64,000 bases of DNA, taken from an uncultured Candidatus Saccharibacteria bacterium (GTDB lineage Bacteria; Patescibacteriota; Minisyncoccia; Phycocordibacterales; Zambryskibacteraceae). The notes beneath the pieces are model-generated. The model did no database searches. It saw only the letters and a list, made by a program, of their open reading frames with translations, and was not told where the DNA came from. Positions 3,413 to 62,260 of this stretch are shown here, in pieces. The stretch spans positions 21,873 through 85,872 of the forward strand of contig CAYGCY010000001.1 in the NCBI GenBank assembly GCA_964348525.1. The letters are read 5' to 3'. Each line of letters begins with the position of its first letter. Position 1 is the first letter of the stretch. The position numbers were made by a program, and so were the translations under genes.

Positions 3413-3448
3413 CCATATTCTCTAATTCGTGAGAATTAGAGAATATGG
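3413..3448. promoter_or_regulatory. 36-bp perfect palindrome (CCATATTCTCTAATTCGnnnnCGAATTAGAGAATATGG) directly downstream of a TATAAT box (3405-3410); candidate operator for the ArsR-family gene
   Basis: inverted repeat read directly; a TATAAT hexamer lies 3 nt upstream; tandem GATATA repeats precede it. Confidence 0.5.
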
Positions 3449-3496: not shown

Positions 3497-3760
3497 ATGC
3501 AAATAAGAAATTTAGAAAGAATACTTAAAGCCTTAGCAAACAGTCGCAGGCTGGAAATCTTGAAGTTTCTGCGGGGCAAGACTGCAAATGTGGGGGAGAT
3601 AGCTGAAGCCATAAAACTTTCATTCAAATCAACGTCGAGGCATCTTTCTATTCTGGCCGGTGCCGATATTTTGGAGAAAGACTATGTCAGTAACCAAGTT
3701 TATTACCACCTTTCGCCGAGCCCTCATACTTTGGTAAAAAAGACACTATCTATTCTCTAA
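3497..3760 (+). CDS. ArsR/SmtB-family winged-helix transcriptional regulator (start could be GTG 3488)
   Basis: LKALANSRRLEILKFL...VGEIAEAIKLSFKSTSRHLSILAGADIL HTH pattern of ArsR family. Confidence 0.6.
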   Translation: MQIRNLERILKALANSRRLEILKFLRGKTANVGEIAEAIKLSFKSTSRHLSILAGADILEKDYVSNQVYYHLSPSPHTLVKKTLSIL

Positions 3761-3781
3761 TTCGTACGAATTAGAGAATAG
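3750..3781. repeat. Second copy of the same palindrome (CTATTCTCTAATTCGtacCGAATTAGAGAATAG) overlapping the ArsR stop codon
   Basis: arm sequence identical to 3413-3448 palindrome; overlaps stop TAA 3758-3760. Confidence 0.5.
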
Positions 3782-3853
3782 ATAGTGGTGGGGGAGGTGG
3801 GGTTTGTTTGGGCATAGTTTGGTGTTGGTTTTTTTGTTATTGTGTAGGTTAAT

Positions 3854-10204: not shown

Positions 10205-10246
10205 ATACCAAGTGTACCAAAGGTTTTACCAATAAAGAGAGAATAT

Positions 10247-10308
10247 AAACCAGAAATGCCTCGTCACGGAGAGATAAACCTCGCTCCTAAACGAGGCATT
10301 TCTGGTTT
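10247..10308 (+). repeat. Hairpin element copy A (conserved loop CACGGAGAGATAAACCTCGCTCCTAA; 18-bp perfect stem)
   Basis: stem AAACCAGAAATGCCTCGT / ACGAGGCATTTCTGGTTT read directly; loop matches family consensus. Confidence 0.8.
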
Positions 10309-10325
10309 ATATTTATATTAAGACG

Positions 10326-10390
10326 AAAACTGAACTAGCCTGTCCGCGGAGCGCGGTATATCTCTCCAAAGGACAGGCTAGTTCAGTTTT
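10326..10390 (-). repeat. Hairpin element copy A' (opposite orientation; 20-bp perfect stem; loop GCGGAGCGCGGTATATCTCTCCAAA is the reverse complement of the core)
   Basis: stem AAAACTGAACTAGCCTGTCC / GGACAGGCTAGTTCAGTTTT; immediately downstream of rnj in transcript orientation. Confidence 0.8.
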
Positions 10391-10428
10391 CTAGAGGGGA
10401 GCTATGGGGATTTATCTGGTTGTCTTTA

Positions 10429-27627: not shown

Positions 27628-27635
27628 AAATATCT

Positions 27636-27697
27636 AAAACAAAAGTACCTTATCACGGAGAGATATACCGCGCTCCTAAATGAGGTATTTTTGTTTT
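27636..27697 (+). repeat. Hairpin element copy B (loop TCACGGAGAGATATACCGCGCTCCTAA)
   Basis: stem AAAACAAAAGTACCTTAT / ATGAGGTATTTTTGTTTT (16/18 paired). Confidence 0.8.
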
Positions 27698-27806
27698 AGA
27701 TAGCATAAAAATGTCCCACTACAGGCAGTAAAACTTGTTTCTAAACGAGATGTTTTGGCCTTGTGTTAAATACAGCTCTAAAGAAGCTAATGATATAATT
27801 ATCCTA

Positions 27807-36534: not shown

Positions 36535-36600
36535 AAAGCAAAGTGCCTCACCACGGAGAGATATACCGCGCTCCTAAACGAAACGCCTTCACTTTTTGCT
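36535..36600 (+). repeat. Hairpin element copy C (loop CACGGAGAGATATACCGCGCTCCTAAAC)
   Basis: imperfect stem AAAGCAAAGTGCCTC / GCCTTCACTTTTTGCT. Confidence 0.7.
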
Positions 36601-36611
36601 AAAAAAGAGTC

Positions 36612-36657
36612 CATCTACAAAGGTCGAACCTTCGCGAAGGTTCGACCTTTGTAGATG
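36612..36657. repeat. 46-bp perfect palindrome (CATCTACAAAGGTCGAACCTTCG | CGAAGGTTCGACCTTTGTAGATG)
   Basis: read directly; 23-bp arms, no loop. Confidence 0.8.
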
Positions 36658-39962: not shown

Positions 39963-40391
39963 ATGATAGCGGTCTACATTTTCTATGGTTCACTTATTGG
40001 TATGCTCGGCATGCTAACTGTGAAAATGTATGAAGCAAAAAGAAGACGAAGAAGTTTGGTGTACAGAATATTCGTTAATTTTGACGAGATAACTCATGGA
40101 ATGCTTGCAAAAATTATGGGTAATTTGCGAGCAAAAAAAGATAGGTTCGAGGATTTTATGAAAGTAGATTTCAAAAAACTTCTCTATCTTTTGGCTGTGA
40201 AAGCTATTGCTCATATAAGGGAGTCTTATGATAAGATTCGTGAATCCTCAAGAGGGGTGCAGAAATTGAAAGAAAATCCCAAGGTGTCAGCCTTTTTGAG
40301 AGACATAGAGGAAGCAAAAAAAGAAATTAGCAAGAAAAACGAAGAAGAAAAAGCAGAGGAGTCGTTTTTGAGAGACAAATTGCCGGAGTAG
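39963..40391 (+). CDS. Hypothetical protein, N-terminal TM, K/E-rich; stop overlaps tRNA-Thr 5' end
   Basis: ORF only. Confidence 0.35.
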   Translation: MIAVYIFYGSLIGMLGMLTVKMYEAKRRRRSLVYRIFVNFDEITHGMLAKIMGNLRAKKDRFEDFMKVDFKKLLYLLAVKAIAHIRESYDKIRESSRGVQKLKENPKVSAFLRDIEEAKKEISKKNEEEKAEESFLRDKLPE

Positions 40392-40454
40392 CTCAGTTGG
40401 TAGAGCAATACTTTTGTAAAGTATGGGTCGCAGGTTCAAATCCTGTCTCCGGCT
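40382..40454 (+). tRNA. tRNA-Thr (anticodon UGU)
   Basis: acceptor GCCGGAG/CTCCGGC, D-arm GCTC-AGTTGGTA-GAGC, anticodon stem ATACT/AGTAT loop TTTGTAA, T-arm GCAGG-TTCAAAT-CCTGT, discriminator T. Confidence 0.85.
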
Positions 40455-40592
40455 CAAATAAAGTGTTTTATTTGAGTCTGGATTTGAAGGTCGGAGCGAT
40501 GTTTTGCTAGCAAGCAAAACCGCGAGACGGGGTCGCGACCGAGCCGAGTGACGACGAGCCGAGAGTTGTGGCCTAATCCTGTCTCCGGCTCA
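40439..40592 (+). repeat. 18-bp direct repeat of the tRNA-Thr 3' end (AATCCTGTCTCCGGCTCA at 40439-40456 and 40575-40592) bracketing a 118-bp insert homologous to the one downstream of tRNA-Gln
   Basis: exact duplication; both inserts share TTTTGCTAG(C/T)(A)AGCAAA and GGGGTCGCGA blocks. Confidence 0.6.
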
Positions 40593-45437: not shown

Positions 45438-47510
45438 ATGGTATCCAAGAAAGAAGACAAAAAAGAGCCTAAAAATGGCTCTTATAGCGCCGCCGATATT
45501 ACCGTTCTAGAGGGCCTAGAGCCCGTTAGAAAGCGTCCAGGTATGTATATTGGTACAACAGGCCCTGACGGCCTCCACCACCTTATTTGGGAGATTTTTG
45601 ACAATGGAAGAGACGAGGCGATGGGAGGGTTTGCTGATGAAATCGAGGTCGCTCTTTTGCCAGGAAATTTGGTGAGAATAACAGACAATGGGAGAGGTAT
45701 TCCGGTAGACATGCACAAGCAAACAAAAGTTTCTGCACTAGAAACTATCATGACCACTCTTCATGCCGGAGGAAAATTTGGGGGAGAAGGGTACAAAGTA
45801 TCAGGTGGTCTGCATGGAGTAGGGGCTTCTGTTGTAAACGCACTCTCTGATTATATGTCCGTTGTGGTACACAGAGATGGCGGTAAATATTTTCAAGAGT
45901 ATTCAAAGGGTAAGAAAAAAGCAGCTGTAAAAAAATTGGGAGCATCAAAACTCCACGGTACTGTAGTTACTTTTTCTGCTGATCCGGAAATATTTCAGGA
46001 AATCAATTTTGAGTTCAATAGAATAGTTCAACACCTGCGTCAGCAAGCCTACTTAGTGAAAAGTTTGAGAATAACCGCAATAGATGCGAGAGGGTGGGAT
46101 GGAAAAATCAGAGCAGAAGAAGTATTTAATATTCGAGAGCTTGATCTCGATGTTCCTTCTATGAGTTTTTATTTTGAAGGCGGGCTACACTCTCTTGTAA
46201 GATTTCAAAACTCATTTCAAAAACCTATTCACAAAAATATTTTTTACATAGAAAAAAAGATGAATGAGTATGAGTCTGTAGAGGTGGCGCTTCAATATGT
46301 AGACGATATATCTTCACGTATTCTTCCTTTCGCAAACAATATCTATAACGGTGAAGGAGGCACTCATGTGACCGGCTTCAAAACTGCGCTCACTAGGACG
46401 CTTAATTCATATTCAAAAAAAGGGAATGGGGAAAAGGCAGATGATTCGTTTACAGGAGACGATGTTTTAGAGGGTCTCACGGCGGTTATTTCTGTGAAGC
46501 TTCGTGAAGTGCAATTTGAGGGCCAAACTAAAGCCAAACTGGGCACTGTGGAAGCGAGAGCCATGGTGGAAAGCGCCTTTGGAGACGCGTTCGGCATGTT
46601 TTTAGAAGAACACCCAGACGATGCAAGAGCTATCATAAATAAAGTGCTTCTGGCAATGCGTGCTAGAAAAGCCGCTAAAGCAGCCAAAGACTCTGTACTC
46701 CGCAAAGGCGCATTTGAAGGCATGACTCTCCCTGGGAAATTAGCAGACTGCCAAACTTCATCTGCAGAGGACTCCGAATTATTTATTGTGGAAGGAGATT
46801 CTGCAGGCGGTACAGCAAAAATGGGGCGAAACAGAGAGTATCAAGCGATACTTCCTCTTCGTGGAAAAATTTTAAACATTGAAAGAGCGAGACTCGACAG
46901 AATGCTTGGGTCAGAACAAATCAGAAATTTGGTAGTGGCACTTGGCACTGCAATAGGTGACACATTTGATATAGGGAAACTCCGCTACCACAAAATAATA
47001 ATCGCAACAGATGCGGATGTGGACGGTGCACACATTCGAACTCTCTTGCTCACGCTTCTTTATAGATTCTTTAGACCGCTTATAGATAGTGGCTATATTT
47101 ACATAGCACAACCACCTCTATATAAAATAAAGATAGGCAAAGATATTCATTATGTTTACACAGAGCCAGAGATGGAGATTTTTAAAAAGAAAAATGGTTT
47201 AGATAACGTGAGGATTGAAGAGAGTTTGGAAACTGAAGATACTTCTAGTGAAGAATCAGCAGAAGAAGCAAATGAAAAAACAAAAAAAACGCCAAAGGCT
47301 TCCGTCCAGCGATATAAAGGTTTAGGTGAAATGAATGCTGATGAGCTATGGGAGACAACAATGGATCCGCAAAGGAGAATTCTAAAAATGGTTACCATCC
47401 AAGACGCCCAAGAGGCAGACAAAGTATTTGATATTTTGATGGGTACAGATGTTCCAGCCAGAAAATCTTTCATTCAATCCAATGCAAAACTAGCTAGACT
47501 GGATATCTAA
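45438..47510 (+). CDS. gyrB: DNA gyrase subunit B (type IIA topoisomerase B subunit)
   Basis: GHKL ATPase, EGDSAGG, Toprim ATDADVDGAHIRTLLLT motifs. Confidence 0.9.
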   Translation: MVSKKEDKKEPKNGSYSAADITVLEGLEPVRKRPGMYIGTTGPDGLHHLIWEIFDNGRDEAMGGFADEIEVALLPGNLVRITDNGRGIPVDMHKQTKVSALETIMTTLHAGGKFGGEGYKVSGGLHGVGASVVNALSDYMSVVVHRDGGKYFQEYSKGKKKAAVKKLGASKLHGTVVTFSADPEIFQEINFEFNRIVQHLRQQAYLVKSLRITAIDARGWDGKIRAEEVFNIRELDLDVPSMSFYFEGGLHSLVRFQNSFQKPIHKNIFYIEKKMNEYESVEVALQYVDDISSRILPFANNIYNGEGGTHVTGFKTALTRTLNSYSKKGNGEKADDSFTGDDVLEGLTAVISVKLREVQFEGQTKAKLGTVEARAMVESAFGDAFGMFLEEHPDDARAIINKVLLAMRARKAAKAAKDSVLRKGAFEGMTLPGKLADCQTSSAEDSELFIVEGDSAGGTAKMGRNREYQAILPLRGKILNIERARLDRMLGSEQIRNLVVALGTAIGDTFDIGKLRYHKIIIATDADVDGAHIRTLLLTLLYRFFRPLIDSGYIYIAQPPLYKIKIGKDIHYVYTEPEMEIFKKKNGLDNVRIEESLETEDTSSEESAEEANEKTKKTPKASVQRYKGLGEMNADELWETTMDPQRRILKMVTIQDAQEADKVFDILMGTDVPARKSFIQSNAKLARLDI

Positions 47511-47573
47511 TTTGATTGGCAAATAAAAGGGAAATCAATTATTCTACCCATAGACCCCTTACAGGAGGTGGAT

Positions 47574-47750
47574 TGTGACGGCACGACCGGTGCATGACGC
47601 CCCCGCACAAGAGGAGAAGCCCCCTGCGGTACAGGAAGTTGTTCTTTGCCCAGAAGGCGAAGACTGTCTGAGGCCTGAGTGTCTCGTGGCAGGTCGATTC
47701 CAATGGTGCAGGCACCCGATACGCACCGGAGCTACGATTCCGGTGTCGTG
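47574..47750 (+). CDS. Cys-rich microprotein, 59 aa (MTARPVHDAPAQEEKPPAVQEVVLCPEGEDCLRPECLVAGRFQWCRHPIRTGATIPVS), ~62% GC; below ORF-track cutoff
   Basis: AGGAGG SD 6 nt before GTG, four Cys, intrinsic terminator immediately after TGA. Confidence 0.4.
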
Positions 47751-47755
47751 ACAAA

Positions 47756-47785
47756 AAGCCGCCACAGATGTGGCGGCTTTTCCAT
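47756..47785 (+). terminator. Intrinsic terminator
   Basis: GCCGCCAC-AGAT-GTGGCGGC then TTTTCCATTTTT. Confidence 0.75.
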
Positions 47786-47811
47786 TTTTGTAAAAAAGCA
47801 ACGTAGCCTAT

Positions 47812-47873
47812 CTAAAGCAAAAGCCTCATTACGGAGAGATAAACCTCGTTCCTAAACGAGGCATTTCTGCTTT
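47812..47873 (+). repeat. Hairpin element copy E (loop TACGGAGAGATAAACCTCGTTCCTAAAC)
   Basis: stem AAGCAAAAGCCTC / GAGGCATTTCTGCTT, imperfect. Confidence 0.7.
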
Positions 47874-47904
47874 GTGTAAATAATAAAAATATATTTTGTT
47901 ACAA

Positions 47905-47941
47905 GGAATAAAAACAAATGGGGAACCCCTAGGGGTTCCCC
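47905..47941 (-). terminator. Intrinsic terminator for minus-strand small gene
   Basis: GGGGAACCCC-TA-GGGGTTCCCC palindrome with T-run on minus strand. Confidence 0.7.
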
Positions 47942-47947
47942 ATACTT

Positions 47948-48178
47948 CTACTGCTGTTCCACAGCTTCGAACATCGAGGCCGGATTGTAGCCAGCAGTTT
48001 CCACCTGCACGTACCAGCCGATTTCCCCGTCTATCCTGAGGGGCTTCACATCTCGCACCATGTGCTGGGAGAGCGAGGTACGACCTTTCCAGCGTACCAA
48101 CTGGCCCTTCGCAAACGGTGCGGTCCCGAGACTGCCGGGAGTGTTGTCGCTTTCCAAAGACGGTTCTCCGACTTGCAT
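47948..48178 (-). CDS. Hypothetical small protein (76 aa), GC-elevated (~55%), possibly an SH3/Tudor-like beta domain
   Basis: AGGAG SD 6 nt before ATG; own terminator; convergent with the Cys-rich microprotein. Confidence 0.5.
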   Translation of the reverse strand: MQVGEPSLESDNTPGSLGTAPFAKGQLVRWKGRTSLSQHMVRDVKPLRIDGEIGWYVQVETAGYNPASMFEAVEQQ

Positions 48179-48241
48179 TCGAATCTCCTGTGCAAAGACG
48201 TGGAGAATTAAGATACCTTAAATAATTGTTTTTGTAAACCG

Positions 48242-49519
48242 CTACTGTTTTGAGGAAATATTTGCTTTTATGAAAGAGATTAAGTTTTCAATATTCATTT
48301 TTTCAGATTTCTCACCATTGCGTGCTTCAAAAGCTAGTTCTTTCGATTCAACCTCTTTGTCCCCGATAACAATATTGTAAAAAGTTTTTTCAGATTTGGC
48401 GTTACGAACCTTCTTGCCCAAGGTTTCATTTGAGCTATCTAATTCAGCTCGTATACCTGCGTCAATAAATTTTTTATAAATTTCCTCTGCAAACTCGTTG
48501 TGTGTTTCGGCAACAGTTAGTATTTTTACTTGGACTGGCGAGAGCCAAAGAGGGAAAGCCCCAGCGTATTTTTCGATGAGGAGCGCCATCGTGCGCTCTA
48601 TTGCTCCAATTGACGAGCGGTGCACCACAAAAGCTCTGTGTTCTTTGCCATCTTCGCCAATGTATTTCAAATCAAATCTTTCTGGCATACAAAAATCGTA
48701 TTGCACGGTAAACGCTGTGTCCTCCTTGCCGTTTGCGTTTTTCATTTGGATATCAATTTTGGGCCCATAGAAAGCGGCTTCATTTTTTGCTTCTTCAAAT
48801 TCTGCACCACGAGACTTCATCAACTTGCGTAGTAAATCTTCCGCTTTCTCCCACGCCTCATCATTTTTATAATATTTTTCTGTGTTTGTTCTGTCGCCGA
48901 GTGACAATCTAAATCTGTAATCCTCGTTTAGTTTCAAGCCGAACACAGATGTGATGTATTCCACTAAATCTAATGCTTTTCCAACCTCCTCCACTGCCTG
49001 TTCCTCGTCTCTACAAATGATATGTGCGTCCGCAAGACAAAATGCGCGCACTCTTTGAAGACCCATTAGTTCTCCTGACTGTTCGTAGCGATAAAGCTTT
49101 GCTAGCTCTGCAATTCTCATTGGCAAGTCTCTGTATGAACGAGGCTCTGATAGATAAAGCTCAAAATGGTGGGGGCATGTCATGGGGCGAAGCATAAACT
49201 CGTCTTCGTCTATCACGATGGGTGCGTACATTGAATCTTTGTAATGCGGATAGTGGCCGGACTTTTTATATAAATCTAGTTTTGCGATGTCTGGAGTAAT
49301 AACGTGGCTGTAACCACGTTTTATTTCTTCATCCACTATAAATCTTTCAAGTTCGCGCCTAATAGTTGCACCCTTTGCTGTAAACAAGGGGAGTCCTTTT
49401 CCTACCGTTTCGGAAAAGGTAAAAAGCCCTAATTCCTTGCCTATTTTTTTGTGGTCCCTTTCATCCATGATTGCAATTCTAACAGAAAATCTTTTGTACC
49501 AAAGTGCCTGCCGCACCAA
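48242..49519 (-). CDS. thrS: Threonine--tRNA ligase, catalytic core plus anticodon-binding domain only (no TGS or N2 editing domains); true start may be ATG at 49468
   Basis: begins at conserved RDHKKIGKELGLF; class II motifs; C-terminal anticodon-binding domain; only 425 aa versus ~640 for canonical ThrRS. Confidence 0.85.
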   Translation of the reverse strand: MVRQALWYKRFSVRIAIMDERDHKKIGKELGLFTFSETVGKGLPLFTAKGATIRRELERFIVDEEIKRGYSHVITPDIAKLDLYKKSGHYPHYKDSMYAPIVIDEDEFMLRPMTCPHHFELYLSEPRSYRDLPMRIAELAKLYRYEQSGELMGLQRVRAFCLADAHIICRDEEQAVEEVGKALDLVEYITSVFGLKLNEDYRFRLSLGDRTNTEKYYKNDEAWEKAEDLLRKLMKSRGAEFEEAKNEAAFYGPKIDIQMKNANGKEDTAFTVQYDFCMPERFDLKYIGEDGKEHRAFVVHRSSIGAIERTMALLIEKYAGAFPLWLSPVQVKILTVAETHNEFAEEIYKKFIDAGIRAELDSSNETLGKKVRNAKSEKTFYNIVIGDKEVESKELAFEARNGEKSEKMNIENLISFIKANISSKQ

Positions 49520-49561
49520 GATTCCACCTTGGCAGATGCATGACCAAGGTGGAATCTTGGT
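49513..49561. promoter_or_regulatory. 19-bp-arm perfect inverted repeat (CACCAAGATTCCACCTTGG-cagatgcatgac-CCAAGGTGGAATCTTGGTG) in the thrS 5' region between divergent genes
   Basis: read directly. Confidence 0.55.
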
Positions 49562-49629
49562 GTCACAGTGCCTTGACGAAATCTCTACTAGTACATATTG
49601 TTGTTGTTAGATACAGCCAAGGAGTCGTA

Positions 49630-49800
49630 ATGAAGCGGAATCGTGAACCAAAACTTGAACGGAGGCTGGCTCACCTCGTTTTCTTCATCGGATTTGTGGT
49701 TGGACTCGTTTGTACTGCTCTCGGAGTTTTGATTGGGGCCCCTGTCGCACTACTGTTCAACAAAAAGATTAAAATGGGAGATGCAGACCTCACAGTGTGA
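49630..49800 (+). CDS. Small membrane protein, 56 aa
   Basis: AAGGAG SD 7 nt before ATG; one TM helix; terminator overlaps stop. Confidence 0.4.
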   Translation: MKRNREPKLERRLAHLVFFIGFVVGLVCTALGVLIGAPVALLFNKKIKMGDADLTV

Positions 49801-49812
49801 GGTCTGTTTTGT
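49784..49812. terminator. Bidirectional terminator shared with dnaE 3' end
   Basis: CAGACCTCACA-GTG-TGAGGTCTG then TTTT. Confidence 0.7.
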
Positions 49813-52800
49813 TATAGCGTTTTTATTTTTTCTGCTATTAAACTTTTTTCGCCGTTTCTTTCCGTAATTTTGCCGAGAACTACCACACAGCTGTCTTCTG
49901 CCAAGAAACTTTTATACTCGCTAAAAACTTTTGGAAAAATTACCATTTCTATTGAGCCAGAAAAGTCTGATATTGTCGCAAAAGCCATCATTTCATTTCT
50001 TTTTGTAGAAATTTCGCGCGTCTTTTCTATTATTCCTGCAATCGTTATTTGAGTTCCGAGTCTTGTGCTTATAGCTTTTTCAATATTCATATCACGCTTC
50101 TCTAGTTTTTCTCTGTATTTATCTAGAGGATGTCCTGAAATATAAAGACCGAGCAGTTCTTTTTCCCATGCCAGTTTTTCATCCATAGTTGCTTCCGTGC
50201 TATCTACCATTTTTACTTCATCGTCGTCCGCAATTGCTCCGAACAGCGAATCGTGAGCATCGCCTTGGTGCATTTTTTCTTTGTGAAATTCCAAGAGAGA
50301 ATCCAAATTAGCAAGCATCTGTCCGCGTTCTCCAAATTCGTCGAGTGCTCCAGTTTTTATAAGCGCTTCAAGAGATTTTTTATTTAAATTTTTATCTGTT
50401 ATGCGAGACAAGAAATCTGAAAGAGAGGCAAAGTGCCCACCACGTTTTCTTTCGTGCACGATAGTTTGCGCGATGCCGGCACCAAAGTTTTTTATAGTAG
50501 TGAGCCCGAAGCGGATTTTATCTATCTCTACACCGTTAGGGTCTCTAACGACCGTAAATCCAGCGAAGGATTCATTTACAGACGGGGGCAGTACGGGAAT
50601 GCCCATTCTTTTGCATTCCTCTATGTAGAGCGCAATAGTGTCTGTGTTGCCTGACTCGGCCGTGAGACAAGAAGACATATAAATAGCAGGGAAGTTGGCT
50701 TTGAAATAAGCCGTTTGATACGCGAGACGACCGTATGAAGCAGAGTGTGCCTTGTTGAAGCCGTACGCCGCGAATGGCTCTATCCATGTCCAAAGTTCTT
50801 GCGCTTTTTTTATTGGCCACTTCGAGTGTGAGACGCACCCTTCTATAAATTTTTCCTTTTGAGCTGCCATTTCTGCAGGAATTTTTTTACCGACCGCTTT
50901 TCTGAATTTGTCCACCTCGCCCCATGAGTACCCAGCAATGTCTTTTGCAATCATCAAAAGATCGTCTTGATAAACCAATATTCCGTATGTTCTTTCCAAA
51001 ATATGTTTTAAAGATTCATCCAAATATTTAACTAGGCTTCGATTGTGTTTTCTTTTTATAAAATCAGGAATGAATTGGATAGGCCCTGGTCTGTAAAGAG
51101 CCACCATAGCGTTAATGTCGTGGATGGTAGTGGGCTTCAGGTCTATGAGAAACTTCGTCATACCGTCGCCGTTCAGCTGAAACGTGCCTTCCGTTTCTCC
51201 GCGTGCAAGCATTTGGAAGGTTTTTTTATCGTTGAGCGGTACTGACTCAGGGTCTATGGTATTTCCCTCAATAGCCCTAATCCTATCCACGGTGTCTGCA
51301 AGTATTGAGAGGTTGCGAAGACCCAAGAAGTCAAATTTCAAAAGGCCAGCTTCTTCAATCGAATACATATCGTATTGAGTAATAAGTTTTTCATCACCTT
51401 TCGTATCGTATTGAAGAGGTGTGTAATCGGTAATGGCAGTTGGGGAAATAACCACTCCGGCAGCGTGCACTGAAATGTGGCGTGCACACCCCTCTATTTT
51501 CTTTGACATATCTATAATGCGCTTTGTGTCTCGATCCTCGTCGTACTTCTTCTGTAATTCCGGCACCATCTCAAAAGCGCGTTCTATTGTCATAGGAAAA
51601 CCTTGCGAACCCATAGGAATTAGTTTTGCGATTTCGTCTCCTTTTCCATACGGATATCCAAGGGCTCGTGCCACATCTCTCACCGCGCCTCTCGCCATCA
51701 TTGTGCCGAATGTTCCTATTTGAGCTACTTTGTCCTCGCCGTATTTTGTTCTTGCGTATTCTATTATTTCGTCACGCCTATTATCTGCGTAGTCCATATC
51801 AATATCGGGCGGAGACGGGCGATCTGGATTCAGAAACCTTTCAAACGGCAGGGCATATTCTATGGGGTCTATATTGGTGATGCCTGAGAGGTAGGTACAC
51901 ATAGAGCCCGCAACAGAGCCTCTAATGTTGGTCAGAATTCCATTTTCGTGAGCGTGACGAAGCAGATCTCCTACGACCAAAAAATAAGGCGAGAAACCCT
52001 TGGTTTTTATGATTGAAAGTTCGTACTCAATGCGTTCTTTTATTTCTGGAGTAATTTCAATGTCCCTCTTTTGAGCGCCTTCATAAACCATTTTTTTGAA
52101 TTCTTCATCAAAGTTTGAATTTTCAGGAATGTCTATTTTGGGGAATACCCACTTGCCGAGTTCTAATTCGAGGGAGCATCTGCTCGCAATACGAGAATTG
52201 TTTTCAAGTGCTTCGGGTAAATCAGAAAAATTTTTCTCTATTTCTTCGGGCGACAAAAAGGAAAAATTCTCCTCCTCGTCTGTAACGCTTTCATCAAATC
52301 TGTCATTAGACTGCTGGACACTAAGCATAGTGTCTCTTGCCGGTTTATCTTCCTCGTCCATATAATAAATGTCGTGAGAAGCGACCGCCTCTACATTATT
52401 TTTCTTTGCGAATTCAATCAGTAGATCCATGTGGGCGTTGTGTCCTGAGAGCTCGTCGTGCTTGGTGATTTCAATAAAAACATTTTGTTTCCCGAAAGTT
52501 TTTAAGTAAAAATCTAGAATGTTTTGAGCTTTTTCGGTATCTTTTCTCCTTAGGGCCTTTCCAATTTCTCCACCAAGAGCCGGAATTATTGCTATAAGTC
52601 CATCGTGAAATTGCTCTAGCAATTCATTGTCTATTCTTGGCTTGTAATAAAAGCCCTCAATGTGGCTTTTAGTTACAAGCATAATGAGATTTTTATAGCC
52701 CGTTTCGTTTTCTACTAGCAAAACCAACCTGTCTCTTGTGTGGTCAACTCCCGCCTGTTTGTCTTTCCGAGTGCGGACCGCTTTATAAAAATCAACGCCA

Positions 52801-52991
52801 ATTATGGGTTTTATTCCAGCTTGTTTACACTCCTTATAAAATTCAATTGCACCATACAAATTGCCAGCGTCAGTCAGGGCAAGTGCTGGCATCTCATATT
52901 TTTTAGCTCTTTCTACAAGGTCCGGAATTTTTGGTAGGGCCTGAAGAAGAGAGTAATGAGAATGTGTGTGTAAATGCGAATAGCGCGACAT
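49812..52991 (-). CDS. dnaE: DNA polymerase III alpha subunit
   Basis: PHP domain HLHTHSHYSLL, polymerase core and fingers regions; 1059 aa. Confidence 0.95.
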   Translation of the reverse strand: MSRYSHLHTHSHYSLLQALPKIPDLVERAKKYEMPALALTDAGNLYGAIEFYKECKQAGIKPIIGVDFYKAVRTRKDKQAGVDHTRDRLVLLVENETGYKNLIMLVTKSHIEGFYYKPRIDNELLEQFHDGLIAIIPALGGEIGKALRRKDTEKAQNILDFYLKTFGKQNVFIEITKHDELSGHNAHMDLLIEFAKKNNVEAVASHDIYYMDEEDKPARDTMLSVQQSNDRFDESVTDEEENFSFLSPEEIEKNFSDLPEALENNSRIASRCSLELELGKWVFPKIDIPENSNFDEEFKKMVYEGAQKRDIEITPEIKERIEYELSIIKTKGFSPYFLVVGDLLRHAHENGILTNIRGSVAGSMCTYLSGITNIDPIEYALPFERFLNPDRPSPPDIDMDYADNRRDEIIEYARTKYGEDKVAQIGTFGTMMARGAVRDVARALGYPYGKGDEIAKLIPMGSQGFPMTIERAFEMVPELQKKYDEDRDTKRIIDMSKKIEGCARHISVHAAGVVISPTAITDYTPLQYDTKGDEKLITQYDMYSIEEAGLLKFDFLGLRNLSILADTVDRIRAIEGNTIDPESVPLNDKKTFQMLARGETEGTFQLNGDGMTKFLIDLKPTTIHDINAMVALYRPGPIQFIPDFIKRKHNRSLVKYLDESLKHILERTYGILVYQDDLLMIAKDIAGYSWGEVDKFRKAVGKKIPAEMAAQKEKFIEGCVSHSKWPIKKAQELWTWIEPFAAYGFNKAHSASYGRLAYQTAYFKANFPAIYMSSCLTAESGNTDTIALYIEECKRMGIPVLPPSVNESFAGFTVVRDPNGVEIDKIRFGLTTIKNFGAGIAQTIVHERKRGGHFASLSDFLSRITDKNLNKKSLEALIKTGALDEFGERGQMLANLDSLLEFHKEKMHQGDAHDSLFGAIADDDEVKMVDSTEATMDEKLAWEKELLGLYISGHPLDKYREKLEKRDMNIEKAISTRLGTQITIAGIIEKTREISTKRNEMMAFATISDFSGSIEMVIFPKVFSEYKSFLAEDSCVVVLGKITERNGEKSLIAEKIKTL

Positions 52992-54254: not shown

Positions 54255-54479
54255 ATGGTAGTAAGGATGAGACATAATCGAGGGCAAACAGGAAGCCGTC
54301 GATCACATCACAAACTAAAGAATCCGGCTTTGGCAAAGGACCAAGACGGAGCTGTAACTTTGCGCCACAGAATGAATCCAGCCACAGGCAAATATAAAGG
54401 CAAGGTGGTTGTGGATATGGCTGCAAAAAAGGCAGCAAAGCAAGCTAGAAAGAAAGCTTCCTCTGAAGCACAGAAATAA
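54255..54479 (+). CDS. rpmF: 50S ribosomal protein L32 with Lys-rich C-terminal extension
   Basis: RRSHHKL and ...LRHRMNPATGKYKGKVV resemble bL32. Confidence 0.65.
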   Translation: MVVRMRHNRGQTGSRRSHHKLKNPALAKDQDGAVTLRHRMNPATGKYKGKVVVDMAAKKAAKQARKKASSEAQK

Positions 54480-54544
54480 ACACAGCGGGATATTTTACTC
54501 AGGAGTGCGATTTGTCTCTCCGTGACAAGATATCCCGCTGTGTT
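54478..54544 (-). repeat. Diverged hairpin element copy H, minus orientation (reverse complement of loop is CTTGTCACGGAGAGACAAATCGCACTCCTGAGTAAA)
   Basis: 16-bp perfect stem AAACACAGCGGGATAT / ATATCCCGCTGTGTTT. Confidence 0.6.
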
Positions 54545-54585
54545 TATGTTTTATGTTAATATAGGGATGTAATAGTTCTTTCACG

Positions 54586-55514: not shown

Positions 55515-56219
55515 ATGGCAGAAGCCAAAGACAATTACGGGCCCTTTGAAGAGCGCATCGGCGTGGTTTTTAGAGATAAAGATATTTTGAGGCAGGCCTT
55601 TACCCACAGGTCTTATTTAAATGAAAATAAGAATGTCTTATGGGGACATAATGAAAGACTAGAATTTCTAGGAGACGCTGTCTTGGAGCTAATCATTACT
55701 GATTATTTATACAAAACTTATCCAGATAAAAATGAAGGAGAAATGACAACACTTCGATCTGCTTTAGTGAAAGCGGACACCCTCTCATCTGTTGGAGTAG
55801 ATATGACAATAGGCGAATATATGCTTCTCTCTCGTGGCGAAGCAAAAGATTTGGGCAGGGCTAGACAATATATTTTGGCCAATGCTGTTGAGGCGGTCAT
55901 AGGGGCTATTTATTTGGATGGTGGATATGGAGAAGCGAGAAAAGTGATAGAGAGATTCTTGGTGCCAAAAGTAGAAATGATAATAAAAGAGGGCTTGGCC
56001 GTAGATTCCAAGTCAAAATTTCAAGCACACGCGCAAGAACATTTTGGTATTACTCCTGTATATAAAACTACTAAAGAAACAGGGCCTGATCACGACAAAC
56101 ATTTTACTGTTGGGGTTTTCCTAAAAGATGAACTTATAGCTACAGGAGAAGGGGATTCAAAACAAGTGGCTGAACAGAATGCCGCGAAGTTAGCACTTGT
56201 AGAAAAGGGGTGGGAGTAA
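55515..56219 (+). CDS. rnc: Ribonuclease III
   Basis: ERLEFLGDAVLELIITDYLY signature and C-terminal dsRBD. Confidence 0.9.
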   Translation: MAEAKDNYGPFEERIGVVFRDKDILRQAFTHRSYLNENKNVLWGHNERLEFLGDAVLELIITDYLYKTYPDKNEGEMTTLRSALVKADTLSSVGVDMTIGEYMLLSRGEAKDLGRARQYILANAVEAVIGAIYLDGGYGEARKVIERFLVPKVEMIIKEGLAVDSKSKFQAHAQEHFGITPVYKTTKETGPDHDKHFTVGVFLKDELIATGEGDSKQVAEQNAAKLALVEKGWE

Positions 56220-56794: not shown

Positions 56795-58996
56795 ATGCTC
56801 AAATCTATAGAATTAAACGGTTTTAAATCTTTCGCCAAAAGGTCCGATTTTGTTTTCAATTCGCCTATTTCGGCAATCGTAGGGCCAAACGGTTCTGGCA
56901 AATCAAATATTGCTGAGGCTTTTCGCTTTGTTTTAGGTGAGCAGTCTATGAAGTCTATGAGAGGGAAAAGAGGGGAAGACCTAATTTTTAACGGCTCTCC
57001 AGATACCCCAAAAGCTAATCGTGCTTCTGTAAAACTTGTTTTTAATAACAATCCCAAAGTTTTTTCTTCGGTAGATTTTAATGAGGTAGTTTTAGAGCGG
57101 GTTGTGTACAGAGATGGCACTAATGAATATTTGATAAACGGTAGCAAAGTGCGTTTGAAAGACATCGTAGAGCTTTTATCAGAAGCCCATATTGGTATGA
57201 CAGGGCACCACATAATTTCTCAAGGGGAAGCAGACAGAATTCTCTCGGCAAATTCAAAGGAAAGGAGAGACATGATAGAGGATGCGCTGGGTTTAAAGGC
57301 TTATCAATACAAAAAAGAAGAATCTGAAAGAAAGCTTGAGAGGACTAGGGAAAATATGAAGCAGGTGGAAAGTTTGCGAAAAGAAATAGCCCCCCATCTT
57401 CGTTTTTTGAAAAAGCAGATGGAAAAAGTTGCTCGTACGGAAGAATTACGCAAAGAACTAACTTTGAAGGCAGGAGAATTTTTTGGCGCAGAATCATTTT
57501 TTATAAAAACAGAAAAGGAAAAAATTCTTGCAGAGTTGGCACCAGATAAAAAAGAACTGGCACGAGTTGCAGAAGGAATAAGGACAGCGAAAGAGAAGCT
57601 CGAAGCAGGTTCAAAAGTGCATGATTTATCTAAAAATCTTCAGGAGGCAGAGAGAAATAGAGAGAAATTAAGGCAAGAGGTGAACGAGACCGTGCGTGAG
57701 CTAGGGCGACTCGAAGGAGAATTGTCCGCATTGAAAAGGATGTCCGAAAAGGTTCACAGCGCCGTACCATTTGAAACAGCGAGAGATTTTTTAGAAAGGC
57801 TTTCCTTTTTAGTAGATGAGTTGAAAAATTTTTCTGAAAAAGGCGATATAGAACAAGTAAAAGTTCAAGCTGAAGCGATAGAAAGAGAAATAAAAAATTT
57901 TCGAACAGCAAATACGGCCGAGAATGGGCAAACAGATTTTTCTGAAATCTTGGTTCAAAAAGAAAAATTAGCAGGGAAACTCATTGAGCTTAAAAAGGAC
58001 GAAGAACAAGCTGTTAAGCATTACACCTTGATTGCAAAACAAGTAGAAGAAGAAAAAGAGGGGAGTCGCACAGCAGAAAAAGCCGTTTATGAATTATTGA
58101 GTAAAGAAAAAGAATTTCAGACCCGTATAGCTATTTTAACTGCTAAAGAGCGGGAACTCATAGTGAGGGAAGACGATTTAAAGCAAAATATGGCCGAAAT
58201 AGGGGCCATGATAGGCAGGGCATTTTTAGATGAAATATTAAGAAACCAAAAATCTTTTGAAATTTCTCCAGATCATGACACCAAGAGAAAAGAGGTCGAA
58301 AGGTTAAAAATAAGGCTTGAAGAGTCTGGTATAGGGGGCACGGCTGATATAGAAAAAGAATTCAATGAAGTAAGCGAAAGGGATGTTTTCTTAGAAAAAG
58401 AATTGGCCGATTTAGATACCTCCGCAGGCTCTCTAGAACAGCTGATAGTAGATTTGTCTGAAAAACTAGAAGTAGATTTCGCCGAAGGTTTGGAAAAAAT
58501 AAATTCTGCTTTTGAAGAGTTTTTCTCTATCCTTTTTGGTGGCGGTAAGGCTTCGCTTACAATAAAGAGTGTAAAGAAGAGAATTAAAAAAACAGATAAT
58601 GAAAGTGGTTTGCTAGAGGAGGTTCAAGAAGAACAGGAAGAATCCGGAATTGATATAGCGGTAAGTTTGCCACGCAAAAAAATTTCGGGACTCATGATGC
58701 TTTCTGGAGGAGAACGTGCCCTCACATCGATCGCGCTTATTTTTGCGATGTCTCAAGTCAACCCGCCACCATTTATTATTCTTGATGAAACAGATGCGGC
58801 GCTCGACGAAGCCAATTCTAAACGATATGGAGATATGGTAGAAAATTTAGCTGCCAAATCTCAACTAATTGTGATTACACACAACAGAGAAACTATGTCT
58901 CGTGCAGGAGTTATTTATGGGGTAACCATGGCACAAGGTGGGGTGTCCAAAGTACTCTCCATTGCTTTTGCTGAAGCAGAGGAAATAGCAAAATAA
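56795..58996 (+). CDS. smc: SMC-family chromosome-segregation ATPase, unusually short (733 aa)
   Basis: N-terminal Walker A GPNGSGKSN in an SMC_N pattern, long coiled coil, C-terminal LSGGERALTSIALIFAM signature and Walker B ILDETDAALD. Confidence 0.7.
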   Translation: MLKSIELNGFKSFAKRSDFVFNSPISAIVGPNGSGKSNIAEAFRFVLGEQSMKSMRGKRGEDLIFNGSPDTPKANRASVKLVFNNNPKVFSSVDFNEVVLERVVYRDGTNEYLINGSKVRLKDIVELLSEAHIGMTGHHIISQGEADRILSANSKERRDMIEDALGLKAYQYKKEESERKLERTRENMKQVESLRKEIAPHLRFLKKQMEKVARTEELRKELTLKAGEFFGAESFFIKTEKEKILAELAPDKKELARVAEGIRTAKEKLEAGSKVHDLSKNLQEAERNREKLRQEVNETVRELGRLEGELSALKRMSEKVHSAVPFETARDFLERLSFLVDELKNFSEKGDIEQVKVQAEAIEREIKNFRTANTAENGQTDFSEILVQKEKLAGKLIELKKDEEQAVKHYTLIAKQVEEEKEGSRTAEKAVYELLSKEKEFQTRIAILTAKERELIVREDDLKQNMAEIGAMIGRAFLDEILRNQKSFEISPDHDTKRKEVERLKIRLEESGIGGTADIEKEFNEVSERDVFLEKELADLDTSAGSLEQLIVDLSEKLEVDFAEGLEKINSAFEEFFSILFGGGKASLTIKSVKKRIKKTDNESGLLEEVQEEQEESGIDIAVSLPRKKISGLMMLSGGERALTSIALIFAMSQVNPPPFIILDETDAALDEANSKRYGDMVENLAAKSQLIVITHNRETMSRAGVIYGVTMAQGGVSKVLSIAFAEAEEIAK

Positions 58997-61695: not shown

Positions 61696-61757
61696 ATTGG
61701 GAAGGCATTGTCACGGAGAGATATGCCGCGCTCCTAAACAATTCCCTCCCAGTCCTT
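61696..61757 (+). repeat. Hairpin element copy F (loop TCACGGAGAGATATGCCGCGCTCCTAAAC), overlapping the rnr 5' end on the opposite strand
   Basis: stem GGATTGGGAAGGCATTG / CAATTCCCTCCCAGTCC (14/17). Confidence 0.7.
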
Positions 61758-62111: not shown

Positions 62112-62116
62112 ACATA

Positions 62117-62180
62117 GCAAAATAAGGAGCCTTGTCACGGAGAGATATACCTCGCTCCTAAACAAGGCCCCTTATTTTGC
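62117..62180 (+). repeat. Hairpin element copy G (loop TCACGGAGAGATATACCTCGCTCCTAAA)
   Basis: stem GCAAAATAAGGAGCCTTG / CAAGGCCCCTTATTTTGC (17/18). Confidence 0.8.
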
Positions 62181-62260
62181 TTTTACTGATATAAGGGAGG
62201 GGTATTTCATTGTGCTAAAATGTTCTTGGTAGTTATTTAGTATTTAATTAAACGAAAGAA

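Follow-up and report, generated by a model that had tools for sequence, protein, structure and literature searches.

The stretch of DNA considered here, hereafter the window, is 64,000 nt (64 kb) of contig CAYGCY010000001.1 from an uncultured Candidatus Saccharibacteria bacterium; all coordinates are positions within it, and L-numbers denote the related loci and assemblies with which it was compared. The subject is thrS, the gene for threonyl-tRNA synthetase (ThrRS), together with a long perfect palindrome that stands just upstream of it. Followed along the minus strand, dnaE gives way to a short hairpin, then to a 56-aa open reading frame (ORF) on the opposite strand, the palindrome, thrS, a spacer of ~730 nt, and gyrB, which is read from the plus strand at 45438-47510 (Table 1). 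A first-pass annotation of this DNA had drawn attention to the shortness of the synthetase and to the palindrome as a possible operator, and the two are best considered separately.

Table 1. Features of the dnaE-thrS region of the window, with the basis on which each was assigned
Feature	Coordinates	Strand	Basis
dnaE (DNA polymerase III alpha), upstream neighbour	49812-52991	-	Syntenic in relatives; window ORF list; Pfam domains of the L090 orthologue
thrS, 408-aa ThrRS (catalytic core and anticodon-binding domain only)	48242-49468	-	Pfam; TIGR00418; structure alignments; homologues starting MDERDHKK
17-codon N-terminal extension of the maximal ORF, spurious	49469-49519	-	ORF list; unconserved, partly inside the strain-specific insert
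Predicted thrS -10 box TAGAAT, ending 7 nt before ATG	49476-49481	-	Identical in L001, L075, L090 and L091
Direct repeat AGGCACT (thrS-sense), thrS-side copy, resembling a target-site duplication	49503-49509		Read from the sequence; single copy of the site in relatives
57-bp insert: GTGA + 49-bp palindrome + CGGC (thrS-sense)	49510-49566		Identical in the window, L089 and L100; missing at the aligned site of L001, L075, L090 and L091/L092
Perfect palindrome: arms 49514-49532 and 49544-49562 (19 bp each), spacer 49533-49543 (11 nt)	49514-49562		Inverted-repeat computation
Direct repeat AGGCACT (thrS-sense), small-gene-side copy; last base within the small gene's -35 box	49567-49573		Sequence and promoter scan
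Predicted promoter of the divergent small gene: TTGACG, 17-nt spacer, TATTGT	49573-49601	+	Promoter scan
Gene for a small hydrophobic protein of 56 aa; Shine-Dalgarno sequence AAGGAG at 49619-49624	49630-49800	+	ORF; homologues in relatives
Hairpin with 11-bp stem, between the dnaE stop and the small-gene stop	49784-49806		Conserved in L001 and L075

The ThrRS of the window carries two recognisable domains, tRNA-synt_2b (PF00587), which is the class II core, and HGTP_anticodon (PF03129), which binds the anticodon, and Pfam finds no match in it for either of the N-terminal domains of the canonical architecture, N1 (TGS) and N2 (the editing domain, tRNA_SAD). The NCBIfam equivalog for thrS, TIGR00418, scores it at 493 bits against a cut-off of 383.65, above the curated threshold for a bacterial-type threonine--tRNA ligase; the match spans profile positions 170-564 of 565 and leaves positions 1-169 unmatched. 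The alignment to the closest solved structure, the ThrRS of Staphylococcus aureus (E = 4e-124), begins at residue 240 of that protein, and the truncated Escherichia coli chain 1evk (401 aa) is covered end to end, query residues 4-406 pairing with chain residues 1-393. Where it pairs with the S. aureus enzyme, the protein preserves the stretches for the zinc ligands and for motifs 2 and 3: MTCPHH, DAHI and VVHRS, presumably the zinc-ligand stretches to judge from the E. coli structure, pair with MNCPHH, DSHI and VIHRG.

The start of the gene requires some care. The ORF list gives thrS 425 aa from a TTG at 49519-49517, inside the palindrome. Close homologues all begin M-D/E-E-R-D-H-K-K and measure ~408 aa, and for this reason the predicted start is likely the ATG at 49468, giving a protein of 408 aa. 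The TTG was rejected as a start codon, lying as it does within strain-specific inserted DNA and adding an extension that is unconserved in any relative. The figure of 425 aa in the first-pass annotation is therefore right as the length of the maximal ORF but probably not as that of the protein. An in-frame stop lies 17 codons 5' of the ATG, and the DNA further upstream is a gene on the opposite strand. Likewise, 27 N2 domains used as tblastn queries recover no N2-like coding stretch from the window, whatever the frame (best E = 0.2). Together these results exclude a frameshift or a longer ORF behind the short ThrRS, and the hidden coding region that could have overturned the short form comes down to an unconserved stretch of 17 codons. 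On this evidence the TGS and N2 domains are, as the first-pass annotation had proposed, truly absent from the predicted protein, which is the natural equivalent of the engineered E. coli ΔN-ThrRS (residues 242-642). With both N-terminal domains gone, post-transfer editing of Ser-tRNA(Thr) in cis is therefore impossible, and this part of the earlier proposal stands as well. The enzyme would charge tRNA-Thr and reject valine through its zinc site; the cell would most likely tolerate some Ser-for-Thr error, in the manner of other organisms with reduced genomes, or make use of pre-transfer or kinetic discrimination.

Given that proofreading could in principle be supplied in trans, the fate of free-standing editing domains bears directly on this enzyme. 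The tblastn search just described reveals no free-standing N2 homologue within the window, and none of the 40 window ORFs of 90-340 aa contains a tRNA_SAD, YbaK/ProX, DTD or archaeal tRNA-Thr_ED domain. When databases were searched with N2 taken from the nearest long-form ThrRS, the matches listed comprised 120 proteins of at most 316 aa, many of them of 150-300 aa; many are either labelled as partial ThrRS or lie on very short contigs. As candidate trans-editors such proteins were set aside: three that were followed on long contigs proved to be 5' pieces of a split or frameshifted long thrS, with the catalytic fragment directly downstream. At L093 (ENA contig_1862) the split between N2 and the catalytic part clearly stems from assembly frameshifts, dnaE and gyrB being fragmented too. 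N2 and the catalytic part also appear as separate, adjacent ORFs at L095 (224 aa and 355 aa, 9-nt gap) and at L094 (216 aa and 308 aa, 160-nt gap); these could be sequencing errors or real split genes.

The short enzyme is not peculiar to this strain. Among the best 120 database matches, 118 are of ~404-440 aa and have the same two domains only, and where named they come from Minisyncoccia, Paceibacterota, Parcubacteria or Nomurabacteria; the other two (75-76% identity) are of ~587 aa and include tRNA_SAD. In a survey of 80 loci from species-representative genomes ThrRS is short in 53 and long in 27. The long forms (~585-620 aa; L007, L039, L041 and others) start directly at N2, recognisable by RHxLxHLLA ... 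CGGGH ... AGAYWRGDE, and keep the HxxxH and CxxxH editing motifs intact; unlike the enzymes of E. coli and S. aureus, they too are missing TGS. In a neighbour-joining (NJ) tree of the shared core the long forms are basal and also interleaved with short forms, and at least three independent all-short clades are present in 100 of 100 bootstrap NJ trees (median 9), a count of losses that assumes no regain of the domain and is a rough estimate from distance trees. N2 thus appears, from these trees, to have been lost at least three times in Paceibacteria/Minisyncoccia. Throughout a large part of this group the ~408-aa ThrRS is the usual form, and it is ordinary for the lineage. Among the literature searched there was no paper on editing-less ThrRS in the Candidate Phyla Radiation (CPR) or Patescibacteria. 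More broadly, the loss of editing by aminoacyl-tRNA synthetases in small-genome, host-restricted organisms is described as a trend in PMC7373986, where Melnikov et al. 2018 is cited together with Li et al. 2011. The enzyme described here fits that known shedding of aminoacyl-tRNA proofreading by organisms with reduced genomes. Further, the interleaving of N2-containing and N2-less ThrRS in Paceibacteria offers a natural series for the study of how cells cope without Ser-tRNA(Thr) editing.

Whether the palindrome lies within an mRNA depends on where transcription begins on either side of it. The divergent small membrane gene of the first-pass annotation is borne out as the 56-aa ORF with its AAGGAG sequence; its counterparts in L075 and L090 show 74-78% identity to it, L091/L092 and L100 each have an annotated 56-aa gene at the matching place, and the ORF has no Pfam or NCBIfam match. 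The hairpin between this gene and dnaE is likely a bidirectional terminator. The predicted promoter of the small gene stands just past the palindrome on the plus strand and leads into AAGGAG and the ATG; in relatives its -35 block, CGTCAA, is invariant and the CAACAATATGTA block is largely conserved, varying in L091/L092. In relatives the two back-to-back -35 boxes, that of thrS and that of the small gene, are only ~5 bp apart. On the thrS side there is no Shine-Dalgarno sequence, and TAGAAT is invariant in four relatives. With this putative -10 box ending 7 nt short of the ATG, and with no Shine-Dalgarno sequence, thrS is predicted to yield a leaderless mRNA whose 5' end is at the ATG or beside it. 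Among the 53 short-form loci the arrangement recurs in 42, where a TANNNT has its end 5-9 nt upstream of the ATG (mean of shuffled sequences 8.0), with a peak at 7 nt; SD-like 4-mers are found in 3 of the 53. Within the window a -10-like TANNNT occurs 5-9 nt before the first ATG of 18 of the 46 long ORFs and an SD-like motif in 7 of 46, and the -10 geometry of thrS (49468) is shared by gyrB (45438), dnaE (52991) and the starts at 56795, 43081, 34436 and 7352. These patterns suggest that leaderless initiation may be common in this Paceibacteria lineage; the literature searched held no paper on leaderless mRNAs in CPR/Patescibacteria. Because thrS is predicted to be leaderless and the promoter of the small gene begins at 49573, beyond the palindrome, the palindrome is predicted to be in neither transcript.

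The palindrome itself is a perfect inverted repeat with arms of 19 bp, CACCAAGATTCCACCTTGG and CCAAGGTGGAATCTTGGTG, as first described; its position is corrected by one nucleotide, from 49513-49561, and its loop is of 11 nt rather than 12. The loop reads UCAUGCAUCUG on the thrS strand and CAGAUGCAUGA on the other, and when the arms are extended to the ends of the 57-bp insert in which they lie, the terminal inverted repeat (TIR) matches at 21 of 23 positions. Folded as RNA, a 135-nt region has a predicted free energy of -53.4 kcal/mol (z = -6.0). No second copy of the 19-bp arm exists in the window with up to three mismatches (chance expectation 0.01). No second copy of the palindrome was found in JGI metagenome contigs, where eight matches are to a single arm in unrelated, non-palindromic contexts, as by chance, and none was found in viral contigs. 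When the ORF running across the palindrome was used to search a protein database, the only match was the identical small protein from another contig of the same strain.

The hairpin had been described as conserved, and this description fails: it is missing from every related genome that was compared, among them four syntenic relatives in which the empty site can be aligned. Such an absence is what the first-pass annotation had itself named as refuting its reading. In these relatives (L001, L075, L090 and L091/L092) ThrRS is 82-85% identical to that of the window and the order of dnaE, small gene and thrS is the same, with gyrB also downstream where the contig reaches (L001, L091/L092). Alignment of the intergenic DNA against all four leaves a clean 64-bp gap at the junction of CGTCAAGGCACT and TTAGTAC. 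The relatives read, in the sense of thrS, CGTCAAGGC(A/T)CT followed directly by TTAGTACAAA (TTAGTAC at the junction) and then, further on, TAGAATTGC and the ATG, with a single copy of the site. The window reads CGTCAAGGCACT, GTGA, the 49-bp palindrome, CGGC, AGGCACT and TTGGTACAAAAG, with TAGAATTGCAATCATG further on, so that the 57-bp insert is held between two 7-bp direct repeats. Since the insert is base-for-base identical in three assemblies of the strain, namely the window, L089 (ENA) and L100 (Logan single-run, ERR3094302), an assembly artefact is ruled out, and an origin of the palindrome by template switching is likewise ruled out by the absence of either arm from the empty site of the relatives. 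The more distant relatives L096-L099, L002 and L080 also have no palindrome; there, thrS has other upstream neighbours or directly follows dnaE. In the DNA of the small gene the window falls together with L075 and L090, to the exclusion of L001 and L091, and all four relatives have the empty site; a single insertion in the lineage of the window is therefore the simplest history. There is good support for the insert being a strain-specific insertion rather than a conserved element that regulates thrS.

The most familiar precedent for a hairpin upstream of thrS is the autoregulatory operator of E. coli, and by analogy the hairpin could be an RNA operator in a longer thrS leader, bound by ThrRS or subject to some other leader control. 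In favour of this, the hairpin is predicted to be very stable, and on the thrS-sense strand it ends 46 nt upstream of the ATG. The other evidence makes this reading very improbable. The palindrome is unconserved, being missing in the close and the more distant relatives compared above, and it lies upstream of the predicted promoter of an mRNA that is predicted to be leaderless and has no Shine-Dalgarno sequence, not beside a ribosome-binding site. Nor does its loop resemble the anticodon arm of tRNA-Thr, as the operator idea had invited one to expect: the tRNA-Thr(UGU) of the window (40382-40455) has the arm AUACU-UUUGUAA-AGUAU, with UUUGUAA as its loop, whereas the palindrome loop has no GU dinucleotide on either strand and hence no NGU anticodon mimic (G35, U36). 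Further, repression in E. coli needs the N-terminal region of ThrRS that the enzyme of the window lacks; a passage of PMC7373986, citing Caillet et al. 2003, attributes repression to a clash of that region with the ribosome. Rfam, run over the whole window at gathering thresholds, reports three tRNAs only, and a T-box is found at 47450-49900 neither at the gathering threshold nor at E values up to 5. An E-value scan of the same interval yielded sub-threshold noise, the palindrome matching a plant miRNA precursor at 26.6 bits against a threshold of 117, which is a generic hairpin match. The idea of a conserved, E. coli-like thrS operator is not supported.

Loci from other Paceibacteria lineages have hairpins of their own in front of thrS. 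L003 (4920-4965) and L020, at the same position, have a perfect hairpin just 5' of the gene with 15-bp arms, TCGCCCCGACAAAAA; a T-run comes after it, immediately ahead of the ATG, much as in a terminator for the preceding gene. In L019 and L023 a perfect hairpin with 20-bp arms that start CGTCCGAGCAAAAAT stands just upstream of thrS. As relatives of the palindrome, the upstream hairpins of L003/L020, L019/L023 and L040 were discarded, their sequences being unrelated to it.

A role in DNA rather than RNA would be a different matter, and the palindrome might be a recently acquired operator for a dimeric transcription factor that controls both divergent promoters. Its dyad symmetry is perfect and it is sited exactly between the back-to-back promoters; its centre, at ~49538, is ~70 bp from the ATG and predicted transcription start at 49468 and also from the start predicted ~7 nt past the -10 box that ends at 49601, a distance typical of class I activators. 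Half-sites of 19 bp set 11 bp apart are, however, far longer than typical half-sites, the site is missing in all relatives, which keep the genes and the promoters, and the window holds no second copy. The flanking 7-bp duplication, moreover, favours transposition over the evolution of an operator, and an operator of this kind is accordingly judged unlikely.

The hairpin might also act as a barrier to transcription or as a site of RNA processing, that is, as an insulator or RNase III site that protects thrS from dnaE read-through or from antisense transcription. The hairpin on the dnaE side has only a weak T-tract on the minus strand, the window contains a gene for RNase III (55515-56219), and a perfect duplex of 19 bp comes close in length to the substrates of that enzyme. 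Against this, no U-tract follows the stem of the palindrome on either strand, and the relatives do without it; such a function seems decidedly improbable. As an intrinsic terminator, too, the palindrome was rejected: the terminator scan is silent, and the flanks, CGGCAGGC and TCACAGTG, have no T-run on either strand.

The best explanation of the locus, and a probable one, is that a minimal ThrRS typical of its lineage stands beside an unrelated 57-bp insertion that lacks a dedicated regulatory role. The insertion would have landed, in the lineage of this strain, exactly between the -35 boxes of thrS and of the 56-aa gene. As the AGGCACT duplication restores the bases next to both -35 boxes, both promoters survive; the insert would move them 64 bp apart, most likely with no dedicated regulatory consequence beyond that, and is probably near-neutral. 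The TIRs are perfect over 19 of 19 positions, and AGGCACT is found on both sides with a single-copy empty site in the four relatives, as in miniature inverted-repeat transposable elements (MITEs). A MITE-like element or a solo-TIR remnant is suggested by the combination of TIRs, target-site-like duplication, empty site and tiny size; judged by these features, a transposon origin may be right or wrong with roughly equal likelihood.

Several considerations weigh against this explanation. The transcription start sites, for both genes, rest on sequence prediction, and a trans-editing factor or a second thrS might yet be encoded beyond the 64 kb of the window. The known copies of the insert amount to one across the window, the JGI metagenome contigs and the viral contigs, and no related transposase or partner insertion sequence (IS) was seen. 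The 19/19 complementarity of the arms could, too, be the outcome of selection for a hairpin or for a site that binds a dimer. A caveat also applies to the direction of the event. The intergenic DNA of the distant relatives is non-homologous and cannot polarise it, and the ThrRS tree places the window as sister to all four relatives with the empty site; on that tree alone, an ancestral deletion between the 7-bp repeats would be as parsimonious as an insertion. The palindrome could then be an old element in the course of being lost, deleted in the relatives by slippage between direct repeats, which serve as deletion substrates as well as marks of insertion. The grouping of the window with L075 and L090 in the small gene and intergenic DNA would, however, require two identical deletions, and the perfection of the arms points to youth, so that an ancestral palindrome is considered improbable; even an ancestral element would still be dispensable and carry the marks of an earlier insertion. 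In either direction, then, the element bears the marks of insertion and is dispensable.

A bolder synthesis would take both halves of the locus as innovations: repeated deletion of N2 in a large branch of Patescibacteria, at least three times and with no replacement in trans, would leave an uncorrected Ser/Thr 'statistical proteome', and in this one strain the palindrome would be a newborn bidirectional site, centred ~70 bp from both leaderless promoters, that has brought thrS and the divergent gene under its control. This combination is rather unlikely. On the preferred explanation, a lineage-typical enzyme next to an unrelated insertion, the palindrome is a strain-specific insertion and not a regulatory invention, and the finding as first written matters little. 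For annotation there is a practical implication, namely that the ~424-aa calls of thrS made for this strain are artefacts, the ORF having run on into inserted DNA.

Beyond the thrS region, palindromic elements of other kinds are present in the window. Eight intergenic hairpins, at 10242-10313 (+), 10325-10391 (-), 27631-27702 (+), 36552-36575 (+), 47830-47853 (+), 54476-54547 (-), 61712-61735 (+) and 62116-62181 (+), form a family in which the stem of most copies is of ~12-24 bp and variable in sequence, often A-rich on its 5' side and T-rich on its 3' side, and in which all copies share an apical module of ~27 nt, CACGGAGAGATA(T/A)ACC(G/T)CGCTCCTAAA, with a small GGAG/CUCC stem-loop (chance expectation 0). 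The module matches no Rfam family beyond generic hairpin noise, and it is missing from 880 kb of related Patescibacteria loci, except a contig of the same strain, and from viral contigs. Here the loop is constant and the stems vary, which inverts the pattern of a normal MITE; the family could be an RNA motif bound by a protein, or an element directed at the loops of terminators. It is possibly of greater interest than the finding at thrS and the palindrome. Perfect palindromes with long arms (15-23 bp) are, further, unusually frequent in the window: two intergenic examples have no spacer at all, at 36612-36657 (46 bp) and 3744-3787 (44 bp), and the latter shares the core TATTCTCTAATTCG with a third palindrome at 3413-3448, ~300 bp off and near tRNA-Gln. 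The gyrB-thrS spacer (47511-48241) looks richer in GC by reading, a difference that a 1-kb composition profile does not resolve, and is unconserved at the DNA level in the closest relatives. It includes an ORF of 76 aa (47948-48178, minus strand), with a 74-aa counterpart in L091/L092 that is 42% identical, as well as one copy of the hairpin-family core at 47830-47853 and, at ~47745-47775 on the minus strand, a hairpin resembling a terminator; the spacer gives no Rfam, Pfam or NCBIfam match.

Set beside known systems, the palindrome resembles the E. coli thrS operator, with its mimics of the tRNA-Thr anticodon arm in the leader, only in being a stem-loop upstream of thrS; unlike that operator it is unconserved, holds no mimic, is not by a ribosome-binding site and is predicted to lie outside the mRNA. 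With bacterial MITEs and small palindromic repeats such as the Correia, RUP and REP/BIME elements it shares inverted repeats, a short direct repeat, an intergenic position and the potential to form a hairpin. At 57 bp it is smaller than most MITEs; it has one known copy and no identified partner IS.

The closest likeness to the enzyme is the engineered ΔN-ThrRS of E. coli (PDB 1evk/1evl), which has the same boundaries and the same two domains, with the difference that one is a laboratory truncation and the other a natural, conserved gene product. The E. coli truncation reportedly mischarges serine. In nature, editing-less ThrRS is known from yeast mitochondria, where, according to a passage of PMC4267643, MST1 (PDB 3ugq; E = 2.6e-60 to the window enzyme) similarly consists of a core and a tRNA-binding domain with no editing domain; MST1 is organellar, of 460 aa and distant, whereas the ThrRS of the window is bacterial in type and nearest to that of S. 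aureus. Crenarchaea likewise have a shortened thrS, whose product, ThrRS-cat, is also missing the N-terminal editing domain, editing being left to a separate protein, ThrRS-ed (PMC7373986); the Aeropyrum ThrRS-1 (3a31) is among the PDB matches. The crenarchaeal split system, however, has a DTD-like editing protein, whereas the 64 kb of the window hold neither such a protein nor an N2 homologue. Finally, Mycoplasma and other host-dependent organisms with small genomes have lost ThrRS proofreading, as here (PMC7373986). In Mycoplasma the editing domain persists in a degenerate, inactive state (PMC7373986), whereas in the lineage of the window it has been cleanly deleted, apparently several times.

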